DNA of 64,000 bases from a bacterium (lineage in GTDB: Bacteria; Patescibacteriota; Minisyncoccia; Phycocordibacterales; UBA2100). Under the pieces are notes generated by a model. The model saw only the letters and a list, made by a program, of their open reading frames with translations. It was not told the DNA's origin and did no database searches. The DNA is taken from contig JAUSGQ010000007.1 of NCBI GenBank assembly GCA_030674455.1, forward strand, positions 83,947-147,946, read 5' to 3'. Of the stretch, positions 13,942 to 57,523 are shown one piece after another; within the stretch, counting starts at the first letter, position 1; each line of letters opens with the position of its first letter. The position numbers were made by a program, and so were the translations under genes.

Positions 13942-14928
13942 ATGATTTCCCTCAAAGGATTTACCCGTGGCTTCATCGCCACGGTTCTGCTCGCGCTGGC
14001 CGGAGTGAGCGTTGCACAAGCCGGAATCTTTCGGGCACTTTTCAGCGGCTCCCAGGATTCCTTTACCCTGTCGGCCGTACTGCCTGCGTACTGCGGTGGC
14101 AAACGTGTGTATGTCGTCGGTATCACCCGGTCAGGGGAAGCCGCTACGTACGTTGCGTTCACTTCGGTGAACGCACCGGTCGTGTTCGATTTGAACGCGG
14201 CCATTCAGGGACTTGCGGAAATCCCTGAATACACGGCAGCTCGCGCGAGCGACGGGAGTATACCCATCCTCGCGTCTTTCAACGTCACCCCCTACCCCGG
14301 AGGGGAAATCTGGGTCGGCTGCGGAACGTCCACGGTAGACGTTCTCGCAAACTCGAGGTACGGCCGGATTTTGGTTGTGAGCATCTCCTGGTGGCCATCG
14401 CAAAGGTCACCAAACGTTGGGGACACTAGCCAGGGCCCGCAACAAATTCCCAACGATGCGGTGTATGTTGGCGACTGGGGTTGGCAAAGGGCAGTCATAA
14501 ACGGCCTCGTGCCATTCCTAGCCTCAGGAGTGGAACTGACCGGTTATACCACCCGTGCAATTCGATTCGCCTTCTACATTTCCGCCAGCAACACCTCGTG
14601 TATGAAAATGATATATGAGGATGACGGAAGCGCGGTTGGTTTCCCCAATACCAGTGGTGGGGAATGCTTCACCAACAGAATTTCCTGGGCAACAGGTACT
14701 GACGATGGTTATATTGCCTTTTCTCCGGATTTCCAGGGTGGTGTGTGCGCTCATTACACCTGGAACGAGAGCCGATTGACACTCGTCGGACAGAGAATTG
14801 TATGTCCACCTGACTTTCTCCAGATGCACTCTCCAGATACCCTGCCGGCCAGCAGGGTATGTTTTTTATTCACACAAATTGTTGCGCACAATTTGCGTTG
14901 CAAAAGAGATGATATACTTTTTATGTAA
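13942..14928 (+). CDS. hypothetical secreted protein (signal peptide, Cys-containing), GC-rich
   Basis: The N-terminal signal peptide is MISLKGFTRGFIATVLLALAGVSVAQA. An SD AGGAG lies 8 nt upstream. There is a marked GC increase versus the preceding island. No family recognised. Confidence 0.5.
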   Translation: MISLKGFTRGFIATVLLALAGVSVAQAGIFRALFSGSQDSFTLSAVLPAYCGGKRVYVVGITRSGEAATYVAFTSVNAPVVFDLNAAIQGLAEIPEYTAARASDGSIPILASFNVTPYPGGEIWVGCGTSTVDVLANSRYGRILVVSISWWPSQRSPNVGDTSQGPQQIPNDAVYVGDWGWQRAVINGLVPFLASGVELTGYTTRAIRFAFYISASNTSCMKMIYEDDGSAVGFPNTSGGECFTNRISWATGTDDGYIAFSPDFQGGVCAHYTWNESRLTLVGQRIVCPPDFLQMHSPDTLPASRVCFLFTQIVAHNLRCKRDDILFM

Positions 14929-37023: not shown

Positions 37024-37731
37024 TTAGTTATGTACAGGATTAGGTATTTGGTTTTTCCATTCCACGTTGTTGATTGCCTTCACTTCGATAGCGGAAGCTT
37101 TTCGTATTTTTCTTAAAGAGCTCTTTGGCGCTACATTAAAATGACGGCTGTCGTCGAGCGCGTCCACAAGCCAGAACAACTCTTCCTCCTCCGTAACCCA
37201 TTTAGCGGGTGAATATCGGCTTAAGTCAAACGCATCTGAATACCGACGCAGAGACTTGGTTCCGTCATCCATGATGTACTCATGGAAATACGACATCGCG
37301 AGTTCCCGAACGCTTCTATAAACCGGGTCGCGATACCTCAATATTGGGTGATTGGTTTTGCTTATTGCGCCCCACAAACTATCCTCCTTGAACAAGGCGA
37401 CAACATGGTCTTCGTCGCGGTCAATCGTACCAAGGTCAAGCAAAAGCGGTTTTTGGCCGTGATAGGCAAGCGCCGTACACGCGAAAAGCGACCCTTCGAA
37501 GCAATGCGCGGTCTGTTCGCGAATAACGCGCCGCGGCGACATATACGTTTCTTTTCCAATTTCGAAATTTATCGGAAGCGTATCTAAATAGTCTTGGATT
37601 TTCCCGGGAGAAGTTAGTTTGGCAAAAATCGAGCGCTCGAAAGGGGAGAGTATGGCTCTTAATTTGTCCCCATATTTCATGGCTCTATCATACCTGTGGA
37701 TAGGTTGATTGACAGGTGAACCTTGGTTCAC
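37024..37731 (-). CDS. hypothetical protein, possible NAT/transglutaminase-like Cys-His-Asp fold
   Basis: TAHCFEGSLFACTALAYHG resembles the catalytic Cys region of arylamine N-acetyltransferase/transglutaminase-like folds, and DEDHVVALF supplies a His. This is weak. The true start may be the internal ATG (MKYGDKL). Confidence 0.35.
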   Translation of the reverse strand: MNQGSPVNQPIHRYDRAMKYGDKLRAILSPFERSIFAKLTSPGKIQDYLDTLPINFEIGKETYMSPRRVIREQTAHCFEGSLFACTALAYHGQKPLLLDLGTIDRDEDHVVALFKEDSLWGAISKTNHPILRYRDPVYRSVRELAMSYFHEYIMDDGTKSLRRYSDAFDLSRYSPAKWVTEEEELFWLVDALDDSRHFNVAPKSSLRKIRKASAIEVKAINNVEWKNQIPNPVHN

Positions 37732-37738
37732 TTATACT
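37709..37738 (+). promoter_or_regulatory. lexA promoter with Cheo-type LexA box (GAAC-N4-GTTC) in the spacer
   Basis: TTGACA lies at 37709-37714, GTGAACCTTGGTTCAC at 37716-37731 and TATACT at 37733-37738. The lexA ATG is at 37745, so the transcript is probably leaderless. Confidence 0.6.
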
Positions 37739-37744
37739 TACAGC

Positions 37745-38323
37745 ATGTACGAAAGGTATAAGAAGGCGATTATTTCATTCTACGATTTACATGGTCGCTT
37801 GCCTGGATATCGGGAAATGATGGAGCTGACGGGATTCAAATCGAAGAACGCGGTTTTTAAATTAATACAAAAATTAATTGAGGATGGCATCGTGACAAAA
37901 GACAAATTGGGAAAACTGATTCCGCGCAACATAAAAGGAGGCGTACGCCTGCTCGGGCTCGTAGAAGCCGGTTTTCCAAGCCCGGCCGAGGAAGAACTCC
38001 TTGATGTCATGAATTTTGACGAATTCCTGACCCCCAACAAAGAGTCCAGTTATATTCTTAAAGTAAAAGGGGATTCAATGATAGATGCAGGGATTCATCC
38101 GGGCGACATGGTGATAGTCGAGCGGCGCGCCACGTATAAACCCGGCCAGATAGTTATCGCGAATATCGATAACGAACATACGATGAAATATTTAAGAAAG
38201 ACCGCCGGAGGAAAAGGCGGGGAGTTTTTTCTGGAACCGGCTAATAAAAAATATAAACCAATATACCCGCGCGAGTCGTTCCGCGTTGAGGCTGTTGTTA
38301 CCGCAGTGGTAAGGAAGTATTAA
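37745..38323 (+). CDS. lexA: LexA repressor (S24 peptidase)
   Basis: The N-terminal wHTH is MYERYKKAIISFYDLHGRLPGYREMMEL. The Ser nucleophile lies in VKGDSMIDAGI and a Lys in the C-terminal domain. The annotated ORF starts with TTG at 37709. The ATG at 37745 is preferred. Confidence 0.85.
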   Translation: MYERYKKAIISFYDLHGRLPGYREMMELTGFKSKNAVFKLIQKLIEDGIVTKDKLGKLIPRNIKGGVRLLGLVEAGFPSPAEEELLDVMNFDEFLTPNKESSYILKVKGDSMIDAGIHPGDMVIVERRATYKPGQIVIANIDNEHTMKYLRKTAGGKGGEFFLEPANKKYKPIYPRESFRVEAVVTAVVRKY

Positions 38324-38447
38324 AACCATACTTAATTTCCAATTCACAATTTGCAATTTGCATTGAATTTCCAATTTTCAATGTTTAAAACTTAATTCAT
38401 TGTAAATTGATTGAAAATTGCAAAATTAGAAATTGTAAATTCATTTT

Positions 38448-39719
38448 ATGATGTTTGAGCGGGCAATTCTTCATATCGACGGCGATTCTTTTTTTGCTTC
38501 CTGCGAAGTCGCGAAAAATCCGAGTTTAAAAGGGAAGCCGGTCATAACCGGGCGCGAGCGCGGCATTGTTTCCGCCATGACGTATGAGGCAAAAGCGAAA
38601 GGCATAAAACGAGGAATGATCCTCTCCGAAGTGCGCCGAATATGTCCAGACGCCATAATTCTGCCTTCCGATTACGAAACGTACAGCATCTTCTCCAAGC
38701 GCATGTATGCCATCGTACGGCGATATACGGACATTGTAGAGGAATACAGCATAGATGAGTGCTTCGCAGGGATTGAAGGGCCAAATGGCAGGGAAGTAGC
38801 AACCTCGATAAAACAGACCCTGGAGAGGGAACTCGGAATGACTTTTTCCATTGGTCTTTCCGCTACAAAAGTGCTGGCTAAAATCGGTTCCAAATGGAAG
38901 AAGCCCGACGGCCTTACCGTGATTGCGCTTAAAGACGCGCCTCTGTACCTCGACAAAACGCCCGTGGAAAAGATATGGGGTATCGGACCCGCCACTTCGC
39001 TTTTATTAAATTCCCGCGGGGTACGGACAGCTCTTGAATTTTCCCTGAAGAATGACGCGTGGGTCAGGGGCTTGCTCGCAAAACCGTATGTGGAAATTTG
39101 GAAAGAACTGAACGGGGAAGTCGTGAATGAGCTGGATGTGGATGGCAGGCAAACCTACAAATCCATAGCAAAGACAAAGACATTTACTCCGCCATCCCAC
39201 GATCCCGCGTTCGTATACTCTCAGCTCTCCAAAAATGTCGAGAACGCCTGCATCAAACTCCGCCGATGGCATCTTGAGGCGCGCGAGGCCCACATATTCT
39301 TGAAGACGCAAAGTTTCGCATATCACGACGCTAAAATCTCTCTGCCGCACCCCACCTCCGCGCCGCAGGAAATTCTTTCTGCCATATCAAAAAGTTTCCC
39401 CCGGATTTTCCAAAGGGGAGTACGGTATCGGGCAACCGGCATTTCACTCATGAATTTAATCGACAGCCAATTGCCAAAGCAATTGAATCTGTTCAACGAA
39501 TATTCAAGCGGGGATGACATTAAAGCGGTCTACGAGAGCATGGACGCGCTTAGTAGCCGATACGGCAAGCATGCAGTTTTCTTATGTTCTAGCTTCAGCG
39601 CGATGAACCATAAGAACCCACAAGACGGCTACGGCGCTACCTCGGAGCGCACAACTAATATTTTTAAAGGGGAATCAGGCCGTAAACGCCTTGGCATACC
39701 GATGCTCGGGGAAGTATGA
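38448..39719 (+). CDS. dinB: Y-family DNA polymerase (DinB/UmuC-like)
   Basis: ILHIDGDSFFASCE, SIDECF and the little-finger domain are present. It is downstream of lexA (SOS cassette). Confidence 0.8.
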   Translation: MMFERAILHIDGDSFFASCEVAKNPSLKGKPVITGRERGIVSAMTYEAKAKGIKRGMILSEVRRICPDAIILPSDYETYSIFSKRMYAIVRRYTDIVEEYSIDECFAGIEGPNGREVATSIKQTLERELGMTFSIGLSATKVLAKIGSKWKKPDGLTVIALKDAPLYLDKTPVEKIWGIGPATSLLLNSRGVRTALEFSLKNDAWVRGLLAKPYVEIWKELNGEVVNELDVDGRQTYKSIAKTKTFTPPSHDPAFVYSQLSKNVENACIKLRRWHLEAREAHIFLKTQSFAYHDAKISLPHPTSAPQEILSAISKSFPRIFQRGVRYRATGISLMNLIDSQLPKQLNLFNEYSSGDDIKAVYESMDALSSRYGKHAVFLCSSFSAMNHKNPQDGYGATSERTTNIFKGESGRKRLGIPMLGEV

Positions 39720-40378: not shown

Positions 40379-41335
40379 TTATTTAAGTGGATGGAATCTT
40401 TTATGCGTAGCTTCTGCATACTTATCCGATGCATGAACATATCTGGTGGTCGTTTCAAGCGACTCATGTCCAAGAAGAATCTGTATTGCGGCAGGATTCG
40501 CGCCTTGCTCGGCAAGATAGGTTGCAAAACCATGTCGTAAAGAGTGAGCGCTGGTAGGCACGTTAATATTCAAAAGTTCTCGATACTGTTTGATTTTCAT
40601 CTGAAGATAGTTAGGAGAAATGTGTTTATTCTTGTCCGATGCATTCTTTCCCCGATTCGGAATAAAGAGAAAGGGGGAGTCATCTGCACGTTTCTTTAAG
40701 TAGTTGTCTATGTGTTTTTTTGCACGTTCCGTAAGGTACACAAATCTCTGTTTCTTTCCTTTGCCCTGAATGAATATCTTACCCGTTCTGTCGATCTGGG
40801 TTCTTTTAATACTAATGAGTTCCGAAATACGCATGCCTGACGCAAATAAGGTTTCCAGAGCTGCGCGATTGCGCAGCGCAATCATGGAGTCCTTTTCAAA
40901 TTTCATCGGGGATTCTATTAATTTTTGTAGTTCAGCCAATTCAGATATTTGAGGATGCTTCTTTTCCATGCGCAGCAATTTAATAGATTCGGGCGCAATT
41001 GGTGTCTCTGTGTCCATATCAATCAAATAGGACAAATAGCGCCTTAGAGAGGTCAGGGTGCGGTTAATGGAGCCGCTTTTGAGCTCTTTCTCTGCGGCAA
41101 AACCATTAGCTGTTTTACGGTCTTGAGAATTTAAATACGCTTTAAATTGCTCTATGGTCCGTTTCGTAATATTCAAAAAAGGAAGGCCGTCCATATCTTG
41201 AGAGAGGAAGCGCTCAAAAGTCTCTAAATCTCTCTCATAGTTATACAAAGTTTCCTTTGAATAGTTATTCGCTTGAATGTGTAATAGAAAGTCTTCTCGA
41301 AAGGGAAGCCTTGATTTATCCGATTTTGTCGCCAT
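40379..41335 (-). CDS. tyrosine site-specific recombinase (XerC/XerD family)
   Basis: It has an N-terminal SAM-like domain, and the catalytic region HSLRHGFATYLAEQGANPAAIQILLGHESLETTTRYVH carries the R...HxxR...Y signature. Confidence 0.8.
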   Translation of the reverse strand: MATKSDKSRLPFREDFLLHIQANNYSKETLYNYERDLETFERFLSQDMDGLPFLNITKRTIEQFKAYLNSQDRKTANGFAAEKELKSGSINRTLTSLRRYLSYLIDMDTETPIAPESIKLLRMEKKHPQISELAELQKLIESPMKFEKDSMIALRNRAALETLFASGMRISELISIKRTQIDRTGKIFIQGKGKKQRFVYLTERAKKHIDNYLKKRADDSPFLFIPNRGKNASDKNKHISPNYLQMKIKQYRELLNINVPTSAHSLRHGFATYLAEQGANPAAIQILLGHESLETTTRYVHASDKYAEATHKRFHPLK

Positions 41336-43530: not shown

Positions 43531-44276
43531 AGGTTAGTCAGACTAACCTTTATTCAAACTCCGCTTGCAACCATTTTCCCCCTTCAATTACGTCTCTAGC
43601 GAAATTCTTGAAAGATCTCGGTGTCGTAAATATCTCTCCTAGCAAATCTTTCTCGATAATCGGCAGCTGTGAAGAGTTTGCATAATGACTAAGACTTGAG
43701 TATTTGTACTCAATCCCCCATTCCCATGCATCTTCAAAATGCTCGGTAGCGCCGCGCAGACCACCCTTCGGATATAACTCAAACACATTTTTCACCATGA
43801 TGTATGCCGATACATACCGTAAATAATTATCGTTCTCTATGGTGCGTCCTCGGTACGAACCCTGAAAGATGCTTCCTTGCTGGTCGTATTTCTCGTTGTG
43901 ATAGTTCGTCATGCTCTGACACAGCTTTTGCATGAAGGCAGAAATCCCGCCTTCACGTATCTCTTTTAGGAGAAGATGAAAGTGATTCGGCATGAGCGTG
44001 TACGCGAGAATTCGCACAAGTGGTTCTCTGTCGGGCCACGTCGCAGGCCTAAAGAATCGCCCATCAAGGTCTGCGCTATACCAGTTCTCATCGAAAAATT
44101 CGTCGTTCATATAATACAGCAGGCGCAAAAAACGCCACTGCTCCGATTCGTCTTCAGTGATGGGCAATCCTCGCGCACCTCGCTTTACCACATGCACATA
44201 CGAGTCAACCCCGAAAGGCTCTACACGCATACCTCATTCTACCCTATAGGTTAGTCTGACTAACCTTTATTCAAAC
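43531..44276 (-). mobile_element. IS200/IS605-family (tnpA-only) element bounded by direct copies of the hairpin repeat GGTTAGTCWGACTAACC-TTTATTCAAAC
   Basis: The 28-bp repeat is present at ~43531-43558 and ~44249-44276, flanking the transposase ORF. The core GGTTAGTC/GACTAACC is an imperfect palindrome. Confidence 0.55.
43550..44230 (-). CDS. IS200-like / REP-associated Y1 (HUH) tyrosine transposase
   Basis: It has the HUH motif LMPNHFHLLLKE and a conserved Tyr region (YLRYVSAYIMVKN). It is 226 aa, the same size as, and related to, the transposase at 18532-19212. Confidence 0.75.
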   Translation of the reverse strand: MRVEPFGVDSYVHVVKRGARGLPITEDESEQWRFLRLLYYMNDEFFDENWYSADLDGRFFRPATWPDREPLVRILAYTLMPNHFHLLLKEIREGGISAFMQKLCQSMTNYHNEKYDQQGSIFQGSYRGRTIENDNYLRYVSAYIMVKNVFELYPKGGLRGATEHFEDAWEWGIEYKYSSLSHYANSSQLPIIEKDLLGEIFTTPRSFKNFARDVIEGGKWLQAEFE

Positions 44277-44344: not shown

Positions 44345-45109
44345 TTAGGCAAGATTGCGCAAGAGCTTGTCCACACTTGCGCGCGTGCTGAAGTAATATT
44401 TTGCCGCGCTTTTTGATGATCTGCCAACCCGGATAGTAATGCCGTCGGTAAGGGCGCGAAAGGCGTCTTCATCGGTGGCGTCGTCGCCGATATATATCGG
44501 CACGGCTTTCGCGAGTGAGCACCTGCTCGCGAGACGGACCGCATCGCCTTTCGTGCGGCTCTCGAGCGAACGTATGTTGAAAATGTATTCGCTCCCTTCG
44601 CTAATATCAAGAAAATTTGTAAATTGTTTTGAGATACTCCTCATCTCCCTGCTAAATCGCGCAACACGCCTGCGCGCGAGTGCGCGAAAATGCACGCTAA
44701 AAGTCAACTTTTTGTCCTCCACAACGACTCCTCGGTAACATCGCGAAAGTTCAGTGAACGCTCTTCGCGCTTCGCTAAGCTTCGCGCACGCCGCGCGCGT
44801 AAGCTTCTCGCGGCCTCGCATCTTTCCCATCCGCCATTCTGCGCCGTGATTGCCGGCGTACCATACGCCTGCCTGATTGACACGAGCGCGCACATCCGCA
44901 AGAGCTCGGCCGGAAATTACGGCAACGCGGCCGCCCGCAGCGCATTTGGCGAGGCAGGCGCGCGTGCGCCTCGACACGCGCGCCATGCGAGGACGAGCAA
45001 CGATAGGCGCAAGAACCCCGTCAAAATCAAGAATGAGCAAGAAACCGTTTTCTTTGACGCGCCTAAGTATACTGCCCATGTGTTTGTCGGCGTTTCTCAT
45101 CCTATTCAA
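44345..45109 (-). CDS. otsB: trehalose-6-phosphate phosphatase (HAD-IIB)
   Basis: HAD motif I is LILDFDGVLAP and motif IV is IGDDATDEDAF. It lies immediately downstream of, and overlapping, otsA. The region is GC-rich. Confidence 0.75.
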   Translation of the reverse strand: MNRMRNADKHMGSILRRVKENGFLLILDFDGVLAPIVARPRMARVSRRTRACLAKCAAGGRVAVISGRALADVRARVNQAGVWYAGNHGAEWRMGKMRGREKLTRAACAKLSEARRAFTELSRCYRGVVVEDKKLTFSVHFRALARRRVARFSREMRSISKQFTNFLDISEGSEYIFNIRSLESRTKGDAVRLASRCSLAKAVPIYIGDDATDEDAFRALTDGITIRVGRSSKSAAKYYFSTRASVDKLLRNLA

Positions 45110-47306
45110 GCTGCGAAAGTGCTTTAATAAGTTCTGCCGACCAGCGGTAAATATTGTATTCGCGGACTGAAGCGCGCATCGTTTTCATGCGGCGGTGCTG
45201 TTCCGTCTTCGGCATCGAGAGCGCCGTGTGAAGCGCGGCGGAAGTTTCTTCCGCGCTATATGGATTGACCACAAGCGCGCCTTTGAGGTCTCGAGACGCC
45301 CCCGCAAACTGGCTAATGACCAGTACTCCTGATTCATCGCGCCTTGCGGCCGCAAATTCTTTGGCGACGAGGTTCATGCCGTCATGCAGAGAGGTGACAA
45401 GGCATACGTCGGCGAGCTGATAGAGGTTGCGAAGCTCCGCGTGGCTATAACTGCGTCGTTCAAGGATAATCGGCTTCCAGTCCTTGGTACCGAATTTCTC
45501 GTTTATCCTCTCGGATTCGGCAACGACCCTTTGGGCGTACTCGCGGAACATACCGACCGATTCGCGCGTGGGAGACCCTATTTGCAGAAGCGTGGTCGTG
45601 CCTCGGTATTCTGCATGGCCGTCCAGAAGAAATTCAAACCCTTTGAAGCGCTCCGGTATGCCTTTGATGTAGTCTAGCCGGTCGACTCCGAGTATAAGGT
45701 TGCCGCGTATCTTTAGTTTAACCAATATGTTTCTATCGGGCGTCTCGCTCGGCTCGGCATTGCCAGGATATGCGATGGATATCGGGAACGGCTTCACGAA
45801 AGTGCGGTGGGCTTCGCGAAAAATAGAGAAGTGCTCGTAGTCTATGCGCGATTCGACTTCGCTCGCGACCGTGTCCATGAAATTGTTGCAGTTTTGCTGA
45901 GTATGAAATCCCATTAGGTCCGCGCCGAGCATTCCCTCAAGTATCTCCTTTCGCCACGGGCAGATGTTGAATTGAGTGGCCGACGGCCAGGGAATATGCC
46001 AGAACATCGCTACCTGCGCGTCGGGACGGCTCTTTTTGATGAGCGCAGGCACGAGAGCCAGATGATAGTCTTGCACGAGTACTATAGGGTGCTCAACATG
46101 GCGTATTTCCTCAAGAAGCGTCTTCGCGAAGAGGCCGTTCACTTTGCGATACGCAAGCCAGTCCTCTTTCCGAAATTGCGGCCGCACATGAGCCATGTGG
46201 CATAGCGGCCAGAGCGCCTCGTTAGAGAAACCGTTGTAGTATCCCTTGGCGTCTTTGGGAGAGACCCAAACGCGCTTCAGCGTATATTTCGGCTCTTCTG
46301 GCGGGACACTAAGCTTCCCATCCGCACCAGCGGTTTCTCTGTCGGCAGCGCCGCTGCCATGGGCAATCCACATGCCTCCGCACGCCTCCATTACCGGTTC
46401 CATCGCTGTGATGACTCCGCCTGCTGGCGTTGTCCACTTGACCTCGCCCCTCACCTTGGTGTTCACATACGGTTCTCCATTGGAAAGAATGAATATCGGC
46501 CTGTCTTTGAGATGCGCTTTTATAAATTCCTTGAGGCGCTCGGCTGTCCATGGCGAATCCAGTTTTTCCAGACGCATCCGTGCTTCTTCGCTCGCCACTC
46601 GCCGCGCTTGGCGCAGACTCGTTGTAACTTTGGAAATTTCACCTGCGAGCGGTTCAAAGAAACTTGAACTCGGTGCCGTGTCGACTTCGGAATCGCCTTT
46701 GCGCACCGCCTTGAGCGACTCGACCATCTTGGAGATAGCTTGGGAAAAAACCCATCGCACCAGGACAAAGATAGCGGCTGAAAAAATCAGTAGAAGGAAT
46801 AGCAGACGAATAATGTTGTCTTTCCAAATGAGGCGAATGTTTTCGTCGATGTATGTAGCGTTCTGCGCGACAGCGAGAGCTCCAACGACTCGCTCGTCTT
46901 CGTGGAGCGGTATCACATGTACATAGTAGGTACCGTCGTTGCGGCGAATGAACTCTCCTCCGGCTTCGTCGCTATCCATCGCCGTTGCTACAAGTTTGCC
47001 ATCTTTCGTAATCGGCATGTCTAAAGACCCCGCGACTAGGACTCCCGAACTGTTAAAAACGCTAATGCCCGCAAGTCGTTCGCTGCTGACAAACCTATCG
47101 ATTATCCTTTGCACAGTGCTCGTCGCACGCGTGTTGTATGACGGCTCAATGCTTTCCGCAAGACTGTCCGCCAATACCTGGCTTCGGGATTGCATGCGCG
47201 AGGTAAGCTCAAGCTTTGCCTGATTGGCTTGGCTCATCGCGAAATACCCCGCAATGAGAATTACAACCAGAACGGCGCTACCCGCGATCTGTAGGACCTG
47301 CTTCAT
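45102..47306 (-). CDS. otsA: alpha,alpha-trehalose-phosphate synthase (GT20) fused to an N-terminal two-TM sensor domain plus HAMP-like linker
   Basis: The GT20 core spans ~250-734 ([44 protein letters not shown]...). The N-terminus has TM1 ([13 protein letters not shown]), an ~150-aa extracytoplasmic segment, TM2 ([23 protein letters not shown]) and a HAMP-like helix pair ([12 protein letters not shown]...[14 protein letters not shown]). Confidence 0.8.
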
Positions 47307-47368: not shown

Positions 47369-50002
47369 CTAGCTTGCAAATCCTCGCGGCGCCAGTTGCC
47401 GTTTACGGCGAAAGAACCATTTTCCTAATTCTATCAAAGCTATGTTCAATACGCCCACCCCGACAACACCCAATAGCCAAGTGCCCGGCAAAGCTACCGT
47501 ATCAAACAATATCTGCAGGAACGGAACATACACGGCGGCTCCCATAAGAACAAAACCGATGAGCACTCCTACGATGAGAAAATGATTAGAGAAAAACGGG
47601 TATCTGAAAATGCTATTGTCCAAGCTCCTTACGGAAAATGCCAAGAATAGTGAGTAGCTTCCAAAACTTGCGAAAATGAATGTCCGCACCACATCTGCAG
47701 GAAAGCCGATCTCAAGCAACAGCCAATACAAACCGAACAGGAATGCGCTCGTTGAGAGTCCAATAAATATAATCAGAAATTTCATCAGCGGGTTAAAGAG
47801 TTCTACCGCATGGTCTCGCCGGCGAACAACAAGACCGCCCCCATCTCTCTCGAATGCGAACGCAATCGCAGGGAAACTGTCTGAAAAGAAATTTACCCAA
47901 AGAATTTGCAGCGCGTTCATAGGCAGGGCAATGCCGGTTACTATCGAACCGCCGATGAGGATCAGCGCGTCGGCCACGCTCGACAAAAGGTATACAAGCA
48001 CCTTGCGTATATTGTTCATTATCTGCCTCCCCTCTTCGACGGCGGCCGCAATCGTTTCAAAATTGTCATCCAATAATACGAGGTCTGCAACATCGCGTGT
48101 TACTGCGGTGCCTGAACCCATGGCTATACCGATATCAGCCCGCTTTATGCTTGGGGCGTCATTTACCCCGTCGCCTGTCATGGCAACTACCTCGCCAGCC
48201 TCTTGGAAAGCCTTAACAATCCTCAATTTATCCAAAGGAGAAACGCGCGAGATTACACTGAGAGCGGGCAATCTCTTTTGCAAATCCTCATCCGACAACA
48301 GGCGCAATTCCGCGGCGTCGAGTACTCCGCCTTCGCCGACGCGGAGCCCTACTTCGCGCGCGATAGCGAGAGCTGTACCGCGATGGTCGCCGCTCATTAC
48401 GACTACCCGTATACCGGCTGATTCAACATCGCGGATTGCCTGCTTTACCGTTACGCGAATGGGGTCGCGCAATGTTATCAAGCCCTCAAAGGATAGGTCT
48501 TCCAGCTCTAAATCTTTTGAAAAATCAAAGTCTTTTGATTCAGCTACGATTTTTGTCGCAACACCGATGACGCGCTCTCCTGATTCCGCCAATGTATCGA
48601 CAGTCGCAAGCACTCTCTCGCGCTCTCCGGCGACGAGTGTTGAGCGATTAATGAATATGTCAGGCGCGCCGACGAACACCAGAATATTCTTGCCGTTCTG
48701 GTGAACGAGCGAAACCGAAAATTTATTCACCGCATTGAACGGAAGAGTACCTATCACAATGGTCTTGTTTTTTACATCGGACGCCAGTATTCCGCGAAGT
48801 GCGGCTGATTGAACCAGCGTAGTCTCCAGAATCCGGCCGGACATTTTCCATTTATTCGGCGGATCTTCCTGATTTTCTATTACAACGCTCGTGTTGATGA
48901 GCGCCATCTCAAGAAGCGCTTCTTCGCTCGTGCCCCCAGCTGGCAATAGTTTGCTTAATTTCATTTTCGCCATTGTCAGAGTTCCGGTTTTATCAGTTAG
49001 GATTACCGACGTACTCCCCAAAGCCTCGGCTGCAACAAGCTTTCTCACCACGCCTTTCCGCCGCGCCATGCGCTGAACTCCTGTCGCGAGAATGACGGTC
49101 ATTGCGACGGGCAGTCCTTCGGGAACGGCTGAAACAGCAATGGCCACGGCCATCAGAAACATATCTATGCGAGAATGTCCGAGATAAATGCCGGCGGCAA
49201 AGATAATTACCGTGAGAACCGCCAAGGAAATACCGGCGCGTATGCTGAACCGCCGTATTGCACCCTGCAAGGGAGTCTCTTCTCTCCGCGCCTCGGCTAC
49301 CAACTCCGCAATCTTGCCGATCTCCGTCGAGAAGTCCGTGCGGCAAACAATCGCCGTTGCGACGCCCTGCGTCACCAATGTTCCTGCAAATACCATGGAT
49401 TTCTGGTCTGCTAGACCCACTTCCAGACCTACCGAATCTGTCGATTTCACGACGGGGAGAGATTCACCCGTAAGTACAGCTTCGTCGATCTGCACATCAT
49501 TCGCGTACACGAGACGTCCATCGGCGGGCACTCTATCGCCTTGCGAGATACGTATCACATCTCCAGGCACGAGGTACTCGGCATCAATTTCGTACTCCCT
49601 TCCGTTTCTCTGTACGCGCGCGCGCTGTTTTAAATACGTTTTTAGTTCGGATATAGCTTTATCGGCCTTATACTCCTGATAAAATCCGAGTGCGCTATTC
49701 ACGAGAACGGCCGCAAAAATAAATATTGCATCGCGAAGATGGTCTATAAAAATGGTCACAAAGCCGGCAAACAACAGCATCAAAATCAAAGGACTCTTGA
49801 ACTGGTTTGCAAGTATATAAAAAATCGAAGTGTCTTCTATTCTTTCAATGATATTCCTGCCGAATATCCTCAACCTCTTCGCAGCCTCCTCTTTAGAAAG
49901 TCCGCTTTGAATGTCCGTTTCCAGTAATCCAACCACCTCGGAATCGGATAATGACCAGAAGGGCTTTTTTTGTATTTCAGTCGCGAGCTTCTGATGCATC
50001 AT
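47369..50002 (-). CDS. cation-transporting P-type ATPase (type II, Ca2+/Mg2+-ATPase-like)
   Basis: It has DKTGTLT (phosphorylation site), TGDGVNDAPSIKRADIGIAMG, a TGES-like loop and 10 TM segments. The N-terminus is typical of PacL/SERCA-type pumps. Confidence 0.9.
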   Translation of the reverse strand: MMHQKLATEIQKKPFWSLSDSEVVGLLETDIQSGLSKEEAAKRLRIFGRNIIERIEDTSIFYILANQFKSPLILMLLFAGFVTIFIDHLRDAIFIFAAVLVNSALGFYQEYKADKAISELKTYLKQRARVQRNGREYEIDAEYLVPGDVIRISQGDRVPADGRLVYANDVQIDEAVLTGESLPVVKSTDSVGLEVGLADQKSMVFAGTLVTQGVATAIVCRTDFSTEIGKIAELVAEARREETPLQGAIRRFSIRAGISLAVLTVIIFAAGIYLGHSRIDMFLMAVAIAVSAVPEGLPVAMTVILATGVQRMARRKGVVRKLVAAEALGSTSVILTDKTGTLTMAKMKLSKLLPAGGTSEEALLEMALINTSVVIENQEDPPNKWKMSGRILETTLVQSAALRGILASDVKNKTIVIGTLPFNAVNKFSVSLVHQNGKNILVFVGAPDIFINRSTLVAGERERVLATVDTLAESGERVIGVATKIVAESKDFDFSKDLELEDLSFEGLITLRDPIRVTVKQAIRDVESAGIRVVVMSGDHRGTALAIAREVGLRVGEGGVLDAAELRLLSDEDLQKRLPALSVISRVSPLDKLRIVKAFQEAGEVVAMTGDGVNDAPSIKRADIGIAMGSGTAVTRDVADLVLLDDNFETIAAAVEEGRQIMNNIRKVLVYLLSSVADALILIGGSIVTGIALPMNALQILWVNFFSDSFPAIAFAFERDGGGLVVRRRDHAVELFNPLMKFLIIFIGLSTSAFLFGLYWLLLEIGFPADVVRTFIFASFGSYSLFLAFSVRSLDNSIFRYPFFSNHFLIVGVLIGFVLMGAAVYVPFLQILFDTVALPGTWLLGVVGVGVLNIALIELGKWFFRRKRQLAPRGFAS

Positions 50003-54436: not shown

Positions 54437-57400
54437 TCACTCCCCTTCCAAAACAAAATTTACAAGTCGGCTGGGTACATAAATCGTGCGTAATATCTTC
54501 TTGCCCTCCACGCGCGAGCCAACTGCCGCGAGCGCCGCATCTTCAACAGTCTTTTTATCCGAATCAGTCGGCACTTGAACTTCTCCGCGTGTTCTGCCGT
54601 TTATCTGAATTGCGATAGTAACATTCTCGTCTCTCAGCAAAGCAGGATCAAACACCGGCCACTTTTCAAGATGAATCGATGATTTATTTCCGGCTTCATG
54701 CCACAACTCTTCTGTTATATGCGGAGCGAACGGTGATAAAAGCTTCAGAAATACTCCAAATTGTTCCTGGCCGATTGCGCCTTCTTTTTCTATCGCATTC
54801 AAAAGTATCATCAAAGAGCTGATAGCCGTATTGAATTTGAGCAGAGCTATATCTTCTCCAATTTTTTTAACAGTCCTGTGCAACACCGGTTCTATGTTCG
54901 CATTTACTGTCAACTGTGGACTGTCAACTGTAGACTGTCCCATCCGCCACACTCGTTCAAGAAATCTGCGGATTCCTACGACGCCGTCCGGATTCCACGG
55001 GTAGCTTGAAACCTCGTTGTAAGGGCCGATGAACGCAAGATACATGCGCACCGTGTCGGCTCCCAAGCGCTCCACTACCAGGTCGGGGTCAATGACATTC
55101 CCGCGCGACTTGCTCATCTTCTGCCCGTCGGGCCCCAGTATCAAACTCCTGTTCATTCGCCGCTTGTATGGTTCCGATTCCCCCACCAGCCCCAAGTCAA
55201 ATAGCGCTTTGTGCCAGAAGCGCGAATAGAGAAGGTGCATGGTCGTATGTTCCGCTCCTCCCGAATAAAGATTTACGGGCATCCAATTCGCTTGCTTCTC
55301 TTTGCTAGCGAATTCCTTCTTGTTGTTGGGGTCTGTGTAGCGCAGGAAATACCATGACGAATCGACGAACGTATCCAGCGTGTCTGTCTCGCGCTCCGCC
55401 TCGCCTGCGCACTTTGGGCACTTTGCGGCAACCCATTTCTTCGCCTTGGCGAGCGGCGACTTCCCGCTCCCTTCGGGTAGATAATCTTTGACCTCGGGCA
55501 GCTCCACGGGCAAGTCCACGTCTCCGACCGGCTGTGAGCCGCACTTTCCGCAATGGATAATCGGTATTGGCACTCCCCAATATCTCTGCCTCGATACTAT
55601 CCAATCGCGAAGCTTGTAAGTGGTTTTCTTAACGCCCAATTCTTCCGTAATGGCTTCCCTTCCTTTCTGCGATGTCAGGCCACTGAACCTGCCGGAATCT
55701 ATCATCAGCCCTTCTCCCATGTAGGGAAGTTCGCCGCCGTTTTTGTCCGCGTTGTTCCGCGTTTGGGCCGATAGGGTTTGTATCGGCACCTGTAGACGGT
55801 CTGCGTTAATCTGCGCCGATATGACTTCCCTTATGGGAAGACCATATCGGGATGCAAACTCAAAGTCGCGCTCGTCGTGCGCCGGCACTGCCATAATCGC
55901 ACCCGTGCCGTAATGGCCGAGTACGTAATCGGCAATATAAACAGGAATCCTTTCCCGTGTCGCGGGATTGATTGCATCCACACCCTCGAGCCTCACTCCT
56001 GTTTTTTCTTTATTCGTCTGGCGGTCCATATCTGATTTCTTTTCAGTTAGGGCGATATATCGCCCTATTTCCTTCTCATTGCGGAGAAGCCGCTGATGCG
56101 CGAGGGCGCGTTTGACCCAAGGATGTTCAGGTGCAAGCACGACGTACGTTGCACCAAAGAGCGTGTCTGGGCGGGTCGTAAAGACAGTAATGCGCGGCAT
56201 AAGCTGTGCTAATACGAGCGGCTCTTGCGCGCCCAGGAAATGCTCCTCATTGGCTTTTCCTTCTGCTATCTGCGCATCAAGAATGTCGGCTAGGTGTGCA
56301 ATGTACGCCCCGCGCTTGCCTTTTTCCGCCGCATCAGAAAGTACGAGTCTTAAACCGGCAAGCGTCTTGAGTTTGTCGTACTTGATATCCCACGAAAAGT
56401 CTTTCCAATACGTTCTCGGTTCCGCATTCGCAAATGCCGAATCTATTGCCGGAGCTACGAGAACCAACCCGCCTACCGGACGATTTATTTTTTGCAGCAA
56501 TTTCATCGCCACAACTGCTCCCAGGCTATGGCCGATGATGACGGTGTTCTCATCTATGTGGCAGTGGTCGAACACGTATTTGACTTGCTCGTATTCCTTC
56601 GGCTCGCTCGTATTTGGAAGTTCAGGTGCTTGGACGGCATACCCCTTGCTCTCGAGCTCTCGCTTGAGCCACGAAAAAAATGCGCCGGTAGGGCTTCCTT
56701 TGTAGCCGTGCAGAAGCAAAAAATTCGGCTGCGGAGCATTTTTATTCTCAAATTCAATCGGAAAACTTATTTCGGCCCCATTGCTGCGCCCTATCCAATT
56801 CCTTTGCGACTCCTTGATTTGCTCCGGCCAATCTAAGCCGGATAGATCGTCTATCAATCTATCCGCGTAATCCGTTATCTTGATATTCCACTGGAGCATC
56901 TTCTTCTGCACCACTTCGCTGTCACAGCGTTCGCATTTACCGTCCGTAACTTGTTCATTGGCAAGAACCGTTTTGTCTTTTGGACACCAATTAACCGCAG
57001 TCTCTTTTTGATACGCCAACCCTTTCTTAAAAAGCTGCAGGAACAACCATTGCGTCCATTTGTAATAATCAGGGTTGCACGTGATTACTTCGCGCGACCA
57101 GTCAAACGATGTCCCCATAGAGGCAATTTGCTTTTTCATATATGCAATATTCCCTTCCGTCCACGTGCGCGGATTGAGCTTGTTCTTTATTGCCGCATTT
57201 TCCGCAGGCAGGCCGAAGGCGTCAAAACCAATCGGATACATCACGTTCTTGCCTTGCATGCGAAGCGCGCGCGCTAAAATATCCGGCACGGCAAATGCGT
57301 ACCAATGCCCGGCGTGAAGATTTCCGGAAGGATACGGGAATTCTACGAGCAGGTAGAAGTTCTCTTTCTTGCCCGCCGTAGCTTTACTGTGTCCGTCCGT

Positions 57401-57523
57401 AGCCTTGAGCGAAGGAGGAGCGGAGGCGGGACCGGGCGCCTTGTCCGGCGTTGTGTAAATCTTGCTTGTCTTCCAATATTTCTGCCACTTGCGCTCAATG
57501 GCCTTATGGTCGTATTTCTTCAT
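54437..57523 (-). CDS. leuS: leucine--tRNA ligase with an inserted alpha/beta-hydrolase (Ser_hydrolase/YdeN-RBBP9-like) domain preceding the CP1 editing domain
   Basis: LeuRS motifs are FPYPSGNLHAGH (HIGH), NWIGRS, TTRPDTLFGATY plus GTGAIMAVPAHDERDFEFA (CP1 editing), and KMSKS. Between NWIGRSNGAEISFPIEF and ITVFTTRPDT lies a ~195-aa insert with LLLHGYKGSP (oxyanion HG), GHSLG (nucleophile elbow), and candidate Asp (LVLSDAAE) and His (AYIAHL) residues. Confidence 0.85.
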   Translation of the reverse strand: MKKYDHKAIERKWQKYWKTSKIYTTPDKAPGPASAPPSLKATDGHSKATAGKKENFYLLVEFPYPSGNLHAGHWYAFAVPDILARALRMQGKNVMYPIGFDAFGLPAENAAIKNKLNPRTWTEGNIAYMKKQIASMGTSFDWSREVITCNPDYYKWTQWLFLQLFKKGLAYQKETAVNWCPKDKTVLANEQVTDGKCERCDSEVVQKKMLQWNIKITDYADRLIDDLSGLDWPEQIKESQRNWIGRSNGAEISFPIEFENKNAPQPNFLLLHGYKGSPTGAFFSWLKRELESKGYAVQAPELPNTSEPKEYEQVKYVFDHCHIDENTVIIGHSLGAVVAMKLLQKINRPVGGLVLVAPAIDSAFANAEPRTYWKDFSWDIKYDKLKTLAGLRLVLSDAAEKGKRGAYIAHLADILDAQIAEGKANEEHFLGAQEPLVLAQLMPRITVFTTRPDTLFGATYVVLAPEHPWVKRALAHQRLLRNEKEIGRYIALTEKKSDMDRQTNKEKTGVRLEGVDAINPATRERIPVYIADYVLGHYGTGAIMAVPAHDERDFEFASRYGLPIREVISAQINADRLQVPIQTLSAQTRNNADKNGGELPYMGEGLMIDSGRFSGLTSQKGREAITEELGVKKTTYKLRDWIVSRQRYWGVPIPIIHCGKCGSQPVGDVDLPVELPEVKDYLPEGSGKSPLAKAKKWVAAKCPKCAGEAERETDTLDTFVDSSWYFLRYTDPNNKKEFASKEKQANWMPVNLYSGGAEHTTMHLLYSRFWHKALFDLGLVGESEPYKRRMNRSLILGPDGQKMSKSRGNVIDPDLVVERLGADTVRMYLAFIGPYNEVSSYPWNPDGVVGIRRFLERVWRMGQSTVDSPQLTVNANIEPVLHRTVKKIGEDIALLKFNTAISSLMILLNAIEKEGAIGQEQFGVFLKLLSPFAPHITEELWHEAGNKSSIHLEKWPVFDPALLRDENVTIAIQINGRTRGEVQVPTDSDKKTVEDAALAAVGSRVEGKKILRTIYVPSRLVNFVLEGE

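Follow-up and report, generated by a model that had tools for sequence, protein, structure and literature searches.

A trehalose-6-phosphate synthase fused to a predicted two-helix membrane sensor and HAMP-like module in Patescibacteriota

Our study identified, in a genome of the Patescibacteriota, a trehalose-6-phosphate synthase gene (otsA) whose product carries a membrane module ahead of its GT20 catalytic domain. The gene lies in a stretch of 64,000 nucleotides (nt) from contig JAUSGQ010000007.1 of assembly GCA_030674455.1 (positions 83,947 to 147,946), which is called the window throughout and from whose first letter its coordinates are counted. One continuous open reading frame (ORF) encodes, from the N-terminus onwards, a transmembrane (TM) helix, an outside domain predicted to resemble the Cache sensor of the histidine kinase WalK, a second TM helix, a HAMP-like segment, a conserved helical linker and the GT20 domain (Table 1). 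We judge it reasonably likely that the protein is a membrane-integrated receptor-enzyme, in which an outward-facing Cache sensor gates the synthesis of trehalose 6-phosphate (T6P) by the GT20 domain. A full-text search of the literature returned no description of a membrane sensor-fused T6P synthase, and the novelty lies in an unusual combination, that of an input of known type with an ordinary OtsA output.

Architecture of the membrane module and its catalytic output

Hydropathy analysis (Kyte–Doolittle, 19-residue span) revealed exactly two strong hydrophobic segments in the whole protein of 734 aa, TM1 at residues 4-24 and TM2 at 165-187, and two such segments, no more and no fewer, occurred in 61 of the 66 diverse members of the family that were compared. 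Residues 1-275 were modelled with AlphaFold2 as a single chain on 88 family sequences, with a mean predicted local distance difference test (pLDDT) of 82, and the model consisted of a helix at 2-58, a helix at 62-75, five strands interrupted by a single helix, a helix at 151-202, a low-confidence loop at 203-214 and helices at 215-250 and 255-266. The first helix is TM1 continued outside the membrane, and helix 151-202 combines the return helix, TM2 and a cytoplasmic extension. The same N-terminal elements were seen in a full-length model (single chain, pLDDT 82.7), where helix 255-266 led straight into the first GT20 strand at 271-275. The modelled layout is that of the PDC fold, a long N-terminal helix followed by an alpha/beta, PAS-like sheet, set between two TM helices.

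Comparison of the N-terminal model with the PDB by Foldseek yielded 59 matches at E<=1e-3. The top match was a full-length WalK model (9a5d_A; E 1e-10, 266 aligned columns of the 275-residue module, TMq 0.67), followed by WalK extracellular-domain crystal structures (4ywz, 7dud and 5is1; TM scores of 0.71-0.78) and then by KinD, DctB, Tlp3 and CitA, every one of them a Cache/PDC sensor. The profile of alignment A2, built from 33 diverse N-termini, matched WalK Cache chains with E values of 4e-7 to 3e-6, and sub-threshold NCBIfam matches pointed to the input regions of the WalK (HK_WalK, residues 15-247, E 2.8e-7), CreC and AtoS kinases. Pfam found no significant domain over the first ~270 residues of the window protein; sub-threshold matches to dCache_1 (7/33), sCache_3_2 (7/33), Cache_WalK (5/33) and also CHASE8 were scattered over the family members. 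From modelled fold and profile similarity, the outside domain is predicted to be a WalK-like single Cache/PDC domain. An earlier reading made from the letters of the window and its translated ORFs (the sequence-only reading) had proposed TM1, an outside domain of ~150 aa and TM2, and hydropathy, AlphaFold, Foldseek and the family profile all bear this arrangement out, with a slightly smaller outside domain of ~140 aa.

As the GT20 reaction requires cytoplasmic UDP-glucose as well as glucose 6-phosphate (G6P), the topology must be N-in/C-in, which fits two TM helices with basic residues after TM2. Cleavage of TM1 as a signal peptide, for which an A-M-S motif near residue 25 was considered, is unlikely given a hydrophobic core of ~20 residues and a helix that is continuous into the sensor. 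Whether or not TM1 is cleaved, the sensor is outside and the GT20 domain inside.

Beyond TM2, both AlphaFold models placed a helix up to residue 202/203, a loop up to 214, which forms a connector of ~12 residues, and a helix at 215-250, and this is the ~50-residue layout of a HAMP domain. The HAMP signature comprises a Pro where the first amphipathic segment (AS1) begins, a Gly at the end of AS1, a Glu at the start of the second (AS2) and hydrophobic residues in heptad spacing. Across the family alignment, Gly204 was nearly invariant and Glu223, around the start of the second helix, was invariant, and in the majority of divergent members the post-TM2 helix had the consensus P-[IL]-x-x-[LM]-x-x-W-[LM]-x-x-x-R-x-G. 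Further protein searches with the N-terminus or its profile gave mostly short fragments, but also a chemoreceptor, P0347, to which the family profile aligned by hhalign with 95.9 % probability (E 6e-9) over columns 16-210, spanning the sensor, TM2 and the first HAMP helix. This alignment stayed in register through AS1 of the Pfam-verified HAMP of P0347 (176-226, E 1.4e-13). Weak matches of the A2 profile to TM2 and HAMP of Tsr (E 0.08) and to the Af1503 HAMP (E 0.2-0.6, residues 188-237) both fell within residues 162-237. Going by alignment and model, residues 188-240 are HAMP-like and probably a divergent HAMP.

Within the N-terminal half, conservation is highest in the linker that follows, where A242, R245, W253 and L258 are invariant and T254 and R257 nearly so among members that are otherwise 23-60 % identical (T254 is invariant in alignment A3 and nearly so in A2). 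The linker ends ~10 residues before the SN(R/G)EP motif of strand 1 and ~25 before the GG loop of the GT20 domain. Ratios of non-synonymous to synonymous substitution (dN/dS), estimated by the Nei–Gojobori method against the closest relative (locus L010) and rough in that dS was near saturation, were 0.04 for the linker, 0.05 for the ectodomain and 0.06 for both TM2 with the HAMP-like segment and the GT20 domain. The linker was thus the most constrained segment, and purifying selection on the ectodomain was as strong as on the catalytic domain, which argues against the module being a mere anchor.

The catalytic domain was matched by Pfam PF00982 over residues 287-731 (E 1e-116; 390.9 bits, cutoff 32.5; positions 21-472 of the 473 in the profile), and the top PDB sequence matches were fungal and bacterial T6P synthases of the Tps1/OtsA type, with E values of 1e-75 to 1e-66. 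For residue comparison we used E. coli OtsA (sequence from NC_000913.3), whose substrate contacts we take to be Arg9, Gly21/22, Tyr76, Trp85, Asp130, His154, Arg262, Lys267, Arg300, Asp361 and Glu369. Ten of these 11 positions were kept, as G296/G297, Y357, W366, D413, H437, R543, K548, R581, D642 and E650. Sensor-fused proteins of Patescibacteria and Acidobacteriota shared ~50 % identity in the GT20 domain, compared to ~33 % with E. coli OtsA, and this is consistent with a single old fusion that was kept and whose halves co-evolved. Conservation of family and contact residues suggests that the GT20 domain is a catalytically competent T6P synthase. Its direct connection to the sensor module, also part of the sequence-only reading, was upheld by the PF00982 match within one continuous ORF.

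Distribution and modularity of the fusion

The same architecture was found in >120 homologues of ~735 aa (~97-100 % coverage, 62-87 % identity), mostly from Candidatus Kaiserbacteria and Paceibacterota. In the databases these proteins are labelled either 'trehalose-6-phosphate synthase' or 'hypothetical protein', and their N-terminal third carries no annotation. A scan of one genome per GTDB species, in which the module was recognized by linker patterns from a closer alignment (A1) that miss the Acidobacteriota branch, found it in 181 genomes. From these, 80 loci were fetched, and the lineages among them were Kaiser-, Taylor-, Nomura-, Yonath-, Komeili-, Doudna-, Jackson-, Magasanik-, Gottesman- and Daviesbacteria. 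In all 80, the N-terminal match was followed at once by the GT20 match, on the same strand, and the two abutted within about two codons in 79, the exception (L005) having a 110-nt gap between local alignments. A frameshift, or a separate upstream ORF mistaken for an N-terminal extension, had been named as what would overturn the sequence-only reading; the contiguity of these loci and the full-length homologues exclude it.

When 1.84 billion cluster representatives were searched exhaustively by HMMER with residues 1-275, 547 clusters matched at E<=1e-3; more divergent members (N-terminus 23-32 % identical) belonged to the Acidobacteriota/Terriglobales. Among 337 module-matching proteins, 203 also matched GT20, 122 were fragments ending at a contig edge, and in 11 the start of GT20 was too short for a score, or the C-terminus was an apparent frameshifted read-through or a low-complexity tail that could not be interpreted. 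The remaining protein, P0193 (690 aa, on a 6.9-kb contig; locus L082, 3373-5445), combined residues 4-234 of the module (33 % identical) with a GCS2 carboxylate-amine ligase domain in place of GT20, and it is a single metagenomic example. Judged by these matches, the module is found almost solely with GT20 but can be transferred, a trait of input modules, and its presence on the GCS2 ligase makes it portable, as expected of a regulatory input. The sensor-fused protein appears to be a common form of OtsA in Patescibacteria and is present also in Acidobacteriota.

The locus and its neighbouring genes

The otsA product is identical to NCBI MDO8552211.1, encoded on a 154-kb contig of a metagenome-assembled genome. 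Only 1 nt separates its TAG stop from the ATG of otsB (at 45100) on the same strand, so that the two genes are translationally coupled, and the T6P phosphatase partner, with a TIGR00685 score above cutoff, was therefore found where the sequence-only reading had placed it. On the other side, 62 nt upstream, lies a P-type cation ATPase whose top NCBIfam match was a PMR1-type Ca-ATPase, under the cutoff of that model. A scan of 43.4-51 kb for regulatory sites gave counts that were not above shuffled-sequence expectation (promoter-like, 4 vs 6.6 +/- 2.7; terminator-like, 11 vs 8.2 +/- 3.1), and no promoter-like or terminator-like site fell in the gap between the ATPase gene and otsA.

Table 1. Features of the sensor-otsA protein and of its locus in the window
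Feature	Position	Strand	Residues	Details
TM1	47235-47297	-	4-24	Hydropathy peak 2.29 at 4-22; runs on into the first long sensor helix (AlphaFold helix 2-58)
Predicted extracytoplasmic WalK-like single Cache/PDC domain	46815-47234	-	25-164	~140 aa; from AlphaFold fold, Foldseek and family profile
TM2	46746-46814	-	165-187	Hydropathy peak 2.94 at 165-183, then R184; within continuous helix 151-202
HAMP-like helix-connector-helix	46587-46745	-	188-240	AS1 188-204, connector 205-218, AS2 from 219
Conserved helical linker	46497-46586	-	241-270	Joins AS2 to GT20 strand 1
GT20 (OtsA-type) catalytic domain	45105-46496	-	271-734	
otsA ORF	45102-47306	-	1-734	ATG start, 734 aa, uninterrupted, TAG stop at 45102-45104
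otsB, HAD-type trehalose-6-phosphate phosphatase	44345-45100	-		PF02358 E 1.8e-28; TIGR00685 115 bits, cutoff 68
P-type (type IIA-like) cation ATPase	47369-50002	-		Directly upstream of otsA; E1-E2_ATPase and Cation_ATPase_N/C domains
IS200/Y1-type transposase-like ORF	43550-44230	-		PF01797 E 3e-8; between otsB and rplI

Downstream neighbours were counted in the 67 loci whose sequence extended far enough past sensor-otsA. The next gene was a HAD-type otsB in 41, an inositol-monophosphatase-family gene in eight, a GT4 glycosyltransferase gene in eight and a GH13 enzyme gene in one, and in nine it was none of these. The inositol-monophosphatase-family genes (PF00459, E ~1e-41; L026 8214-8987, L054 8225-8986, L021 9526-10305 and five further loci) may, going by family membership and position, be a non-orthologous replacement of the T6P phosphatase. 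One Acidobacteriota locus had a Trehalose_PPase gene 1.3 kb downstream.

A P-type ATPase gene adjoined sensor-otsA in 15 of the 80 loci, on either side of it and in either orientation. This is several-fold over chance by a rough estimate that assumes a few such genes per ~1000-gene genome and ignores kinship of the loci, and it may indicate that the ATPase and sensor-otsA share a role in ion or osmotic stress. The ATPase upstream of otsA in the window is thus a possible functional partner. Its slot, between the gene for a 187-aa membrane protein and otsA, is empty in L010, and L007 has a 34 %-identical paralogue there.

In one divergent relative (P0215; L085 7254-12259), sensor-otsA stood beside response regulators, HATPase_c fragments and a multi-HAMP/GAF histidine kinase, with the gene of a CsbD stress protein nearby.

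Elsewhere in the window, a leucyl-tRNA synthetase of 1028 aa (54437-57523, - strand) had, between its catalytic core and its CP1 editing domain, an additional alpha/beta-hydrolase domain (residues ~266-440; Ser_hydrolase / Abhydrolase_6), an insertion that is unusual for this enzyme. A LexA-like S24 peptidase and DinB/Y-family polymerase gene pair (37709-39719, + strand, and 40379-41335, - strand), beside a tyrosine recombinase gene, looks like an ordinary SOS-type cassette.

Proposed function, alternatives and known systems

The reading that we favour, in which the sensor directly gates compatible-solute synthesis, is plausible and can be set out as a mechanism. An N-in protein with two TM helices would expose its WalK-like single Cache (PDC) domain outside the cell, where a cue at the outer face or in the membrane, be it a ligand or an ionic, osmotic or envelope state, would shift TM2 and the HAMP-like segment within a dimer. 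The linker would pass this shift to the N-terminal lobe of the GT20 domain, in which the SN(R/G)EP strand 1 and the GG loop lie, and so reposition that lobe of the GT-B fold. T6P synthesis would in this way be switched on or off post-translationally, without a kinase, a second messenger or a transcription step, and the translationally coupled OtsB would then release trehalose. Dimerization, the cue and the regulation of catalysis by the sensor are elements that we infer.

Several findings weigh against this reading. The profile check on which the sequence-only reading had staked its N-terminal module came out negative, as Pfam gave no HAMP or Cache match at E<=10 over residues 1-276 and 165-263; no Cache family was found at the Pfam threshold in the window protein (residues 1-276), and the HAMP family (PF00672) was missing from both stretches, where only noise was returned (SMP_2, GAF, TarH and PilJ). 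Within the family, Pfam HAMP was sub-threshold and confined to 5 of 33 members (best E 0.0036), apart from a match in protein P0186 (E 0.0011), and the canonical AS1 Pro, though kept in the majority of divergent members, is replaced by Ala/Gln in the window protein. The HAMP-like linker of the sequence-only reading thus holds as a helix–connector–helix after TM2 that aligns in register with P0347, but not as a full member of the HAMP family. The linker region was modelled with low confidence (pLDDT 51-67), and putative ligand-pocket residues vary across the wider family, so that no common ligand can be proposed. In the catalytic domain, the cutoff of the NCBIfam OtsA equivalog TIGR02400 was missed (424.8 vs 564.85 bits), which reflects divergence; TIGR02400 was still the top single-function model, ahead of GgpS, which at 309.6 bits was also under its cutoff. 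The equivalent of Arg9 (strand 1, SNR), which in E. coli OtsA contacts the G6P phosphate, is Gly277 (codon 46476-46478). This column held R in 44, G in 23 and A in seven of 88 family sequences, with Gly also in the closest relatives, and the handling of acceptor or substrate may accordingly differ from that of textbook OtsA, being altered or compensated, if the aligned residue is a guide.

The main rival is that the N-terminal module serves as membrane anchor and dimerization scaffold only. No signal would then be transmitted, T6P or trehalose would be made at the membrane, for example to be passed on to an exporter or into the making of envelope glycoconjugates, and the sensor-like fold would be an evolutionary leftover of a kinase-derived fusion. 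The family-wide variation of pocket residues and the missing Pfam-level HAMP speak for such a role, as do the GT4 glycosyltransferase genes that follow sensor-otsA in 8/67 loci and hint at downstream glycosylation chemistry. We nonetheless regard it, leftover fold included, as unlikely. A simple anchor has no need of a folded 140-aa ectodomain held at a dN/dS of ~0.05, the invariant Glu and nearly invariant Gly at HAMP signature positions and the near-invariant linker tell against it, and reuse of the module on an unrelated enzyme (P0193) is typical of input modules. T6P acts as a signal in plants and fungi, and the GT20 product could be mainly a regulatory metabolite of this kind, a different glucosyl-phosphate or a building block, not an osmolyte, which would make the protein a receptor with a small-molecule signalling output. 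The Gly or Ala at the Arg9 position in about 40 % of sampled family members, the OtsA and GgpS scores that both lie under cutoff, the inositol-monophosphatase-family gene in place of otsB in 8/67 loci and the missing adjacent phosphatase in 9/67 are in keeping with this. Against these stand the conservation of all other G6P and UDP-glucose contact residues of E. coli OtsA, the top PDB and NCBIfam matches, which are T6P synthases, and the dedicated T6P phosphatase that is translationally coupled here and in most relatives and argues for T6P being turned into trehalose instead of building up as a signal; we find such a product rather improbable, more so than a bare anchor.

The remaining alternatives concern the origin of the gene. 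The sequence-only reading took the 44.3-47.3 kb block for conspicuously GC-rich and suggested its acquisition, in which case the odd architecture would be of foreign origin, on a recently acquired island. The GC content of otsA (53.7 %) and otsB (55.7 %) is indeed above that of the window (48.5 %) and of its 50 long ORFs (48.7 +/- 4.3 %, mean +/- standard deviation), and an IS200/Y1-type ORF lies just downstream. The block is therefore GC-rich in a weak sense, but hardly conspicuous, as the excess is only 1.2 standard deviations for otsA and 1.6 for otsB, and the genes at 13942, 62232 and 62988 have a GC content as high or higher. In L010, otsAB is flanked by genes for cysteinyl-tRNA synthetase, an S41 peptidase and the 187-aa membrane protein on one side and by rplI, rpmA and Ada-like and RNase T-like genes on the other, in synteny with the window, and L007 has most of the same neighbours. 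Both relatives show the same GC offset (otsA/otsB 0.549/0.579 vs 0.49 in the flanks of L010; 0.557/0.601 vs 0.51 in L007), which together with the synteny indicates that otsAB was vertically inherited in this lineage and that any transfer predates the divergence of these genomes. The Y1-type ORF is missing at that position in L010 and L007, so that it, and not otsAB, is the lineage-specific insertion. The architecture is also widespread in the same phylum. Recent horizontal transfer was rejected and the acquisition claim finds no support; we consider an island origin very improbable. An assembly or frameshift artefact that joined a separate sensor gene to otsA has practically no chance of being correct and was likewise rejected. 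Nothing was found in its favour, the ORF is continuous, the same junction recurs in 80/80 independent loci and in the >120 full-length homologues, and the few odd C-termini in the database are frameshifted read-throughs past the GT20 start motif.

We return to the Cache-gated synthase as the favoured reading. With some doubt, we further propose that it may be the first example of a transmembrane receptor class that is widespread and has a primary biosynthetic enzyme as output. An extracytoplasmic Cache domain would here gate T6P synthesis via a HAMP-like relay, and the input module could also be attached to further metabolic enzymes, the GCS2 ligase of P0193 among them. Compatible-solute synthesis is usually described as being under transcriptional control or subject to direct ionic effects on soluble enzymes. 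If the reading is true, bacteria with small genomes would have a one-protein stress response and compatible-solute control a third, signalling-free route, and the output repertoire of Cache–HAMP modules would widen from signalling enzymes to core metabolism. With 181 species genomes in one scan, this may be an important stress switch for Patescibacteria and soil Acidobacteriota, and it would offer a natural scaffold for engineering ligand-controlled glycosyltransferases.

Among known systems, WalK (YycG), a sensor histidine kinase of the Firmicutes, has the same order of TM1, extracellular Cache domain, TM2 and HAMP and the same fold. It differs in sequence (~15 % identity) and in output, which is here a GT20 glycosyltransferase; PAS, DHp (HisKA) and HATPase_c domains were not found in the otsA product by Pfam or NCBIfam, in which matches to kinase models cover the N-terminal input region only, and the stretches scanned showed no YycH/YycI-like partner genes. 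With OtsA/Tps1 (E. coli 1GZ5/1UQU; fungal 6JBI/5HUT) the protein shares a complete GT-B catalytic domain, donor and acceptor contacts and an otsB partner gene. The characterized OtsA/Tps1 proteins matched in the PDB are soluble and ~455-515 aa long (one 693 aa), and their matches begin at query residue ~270, none aligning to the sensor; the window protein departs from them in its 270-aa N-terminal TM sensor module, in strand 1 (SN(G)EPY vs SNR(L/I)P) and in an insertion after the GG loop. The nearest published idea comes from Arthrobacter, where OtsA is presented as an osmotic stress sensor with a second role in regulating morphogenesis, so that, as in the reading favoured here, OtsA itself is tied to osmotic stress sensing beyond transcriptional control; the abstract of that work makes no mention of a membrane sensor domain (PMC5685639). 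There is also a likeness in design to transmembrane one-component receptor-enzymes (Cache/CHASE and HAMP diguanylate cyclases, adenylate cyclases and PP2C phosphatases) and to chemoreceptors, which likewise unite sensor, TM2, HAMP and a fused output in one polypeptide. The outputs of Cache/HAMP receptors make or destroy a signalling molecule or feed a signalling pathway, whereas the output of the protein described here is a biosynthetic enzyme of central stress metabolism.

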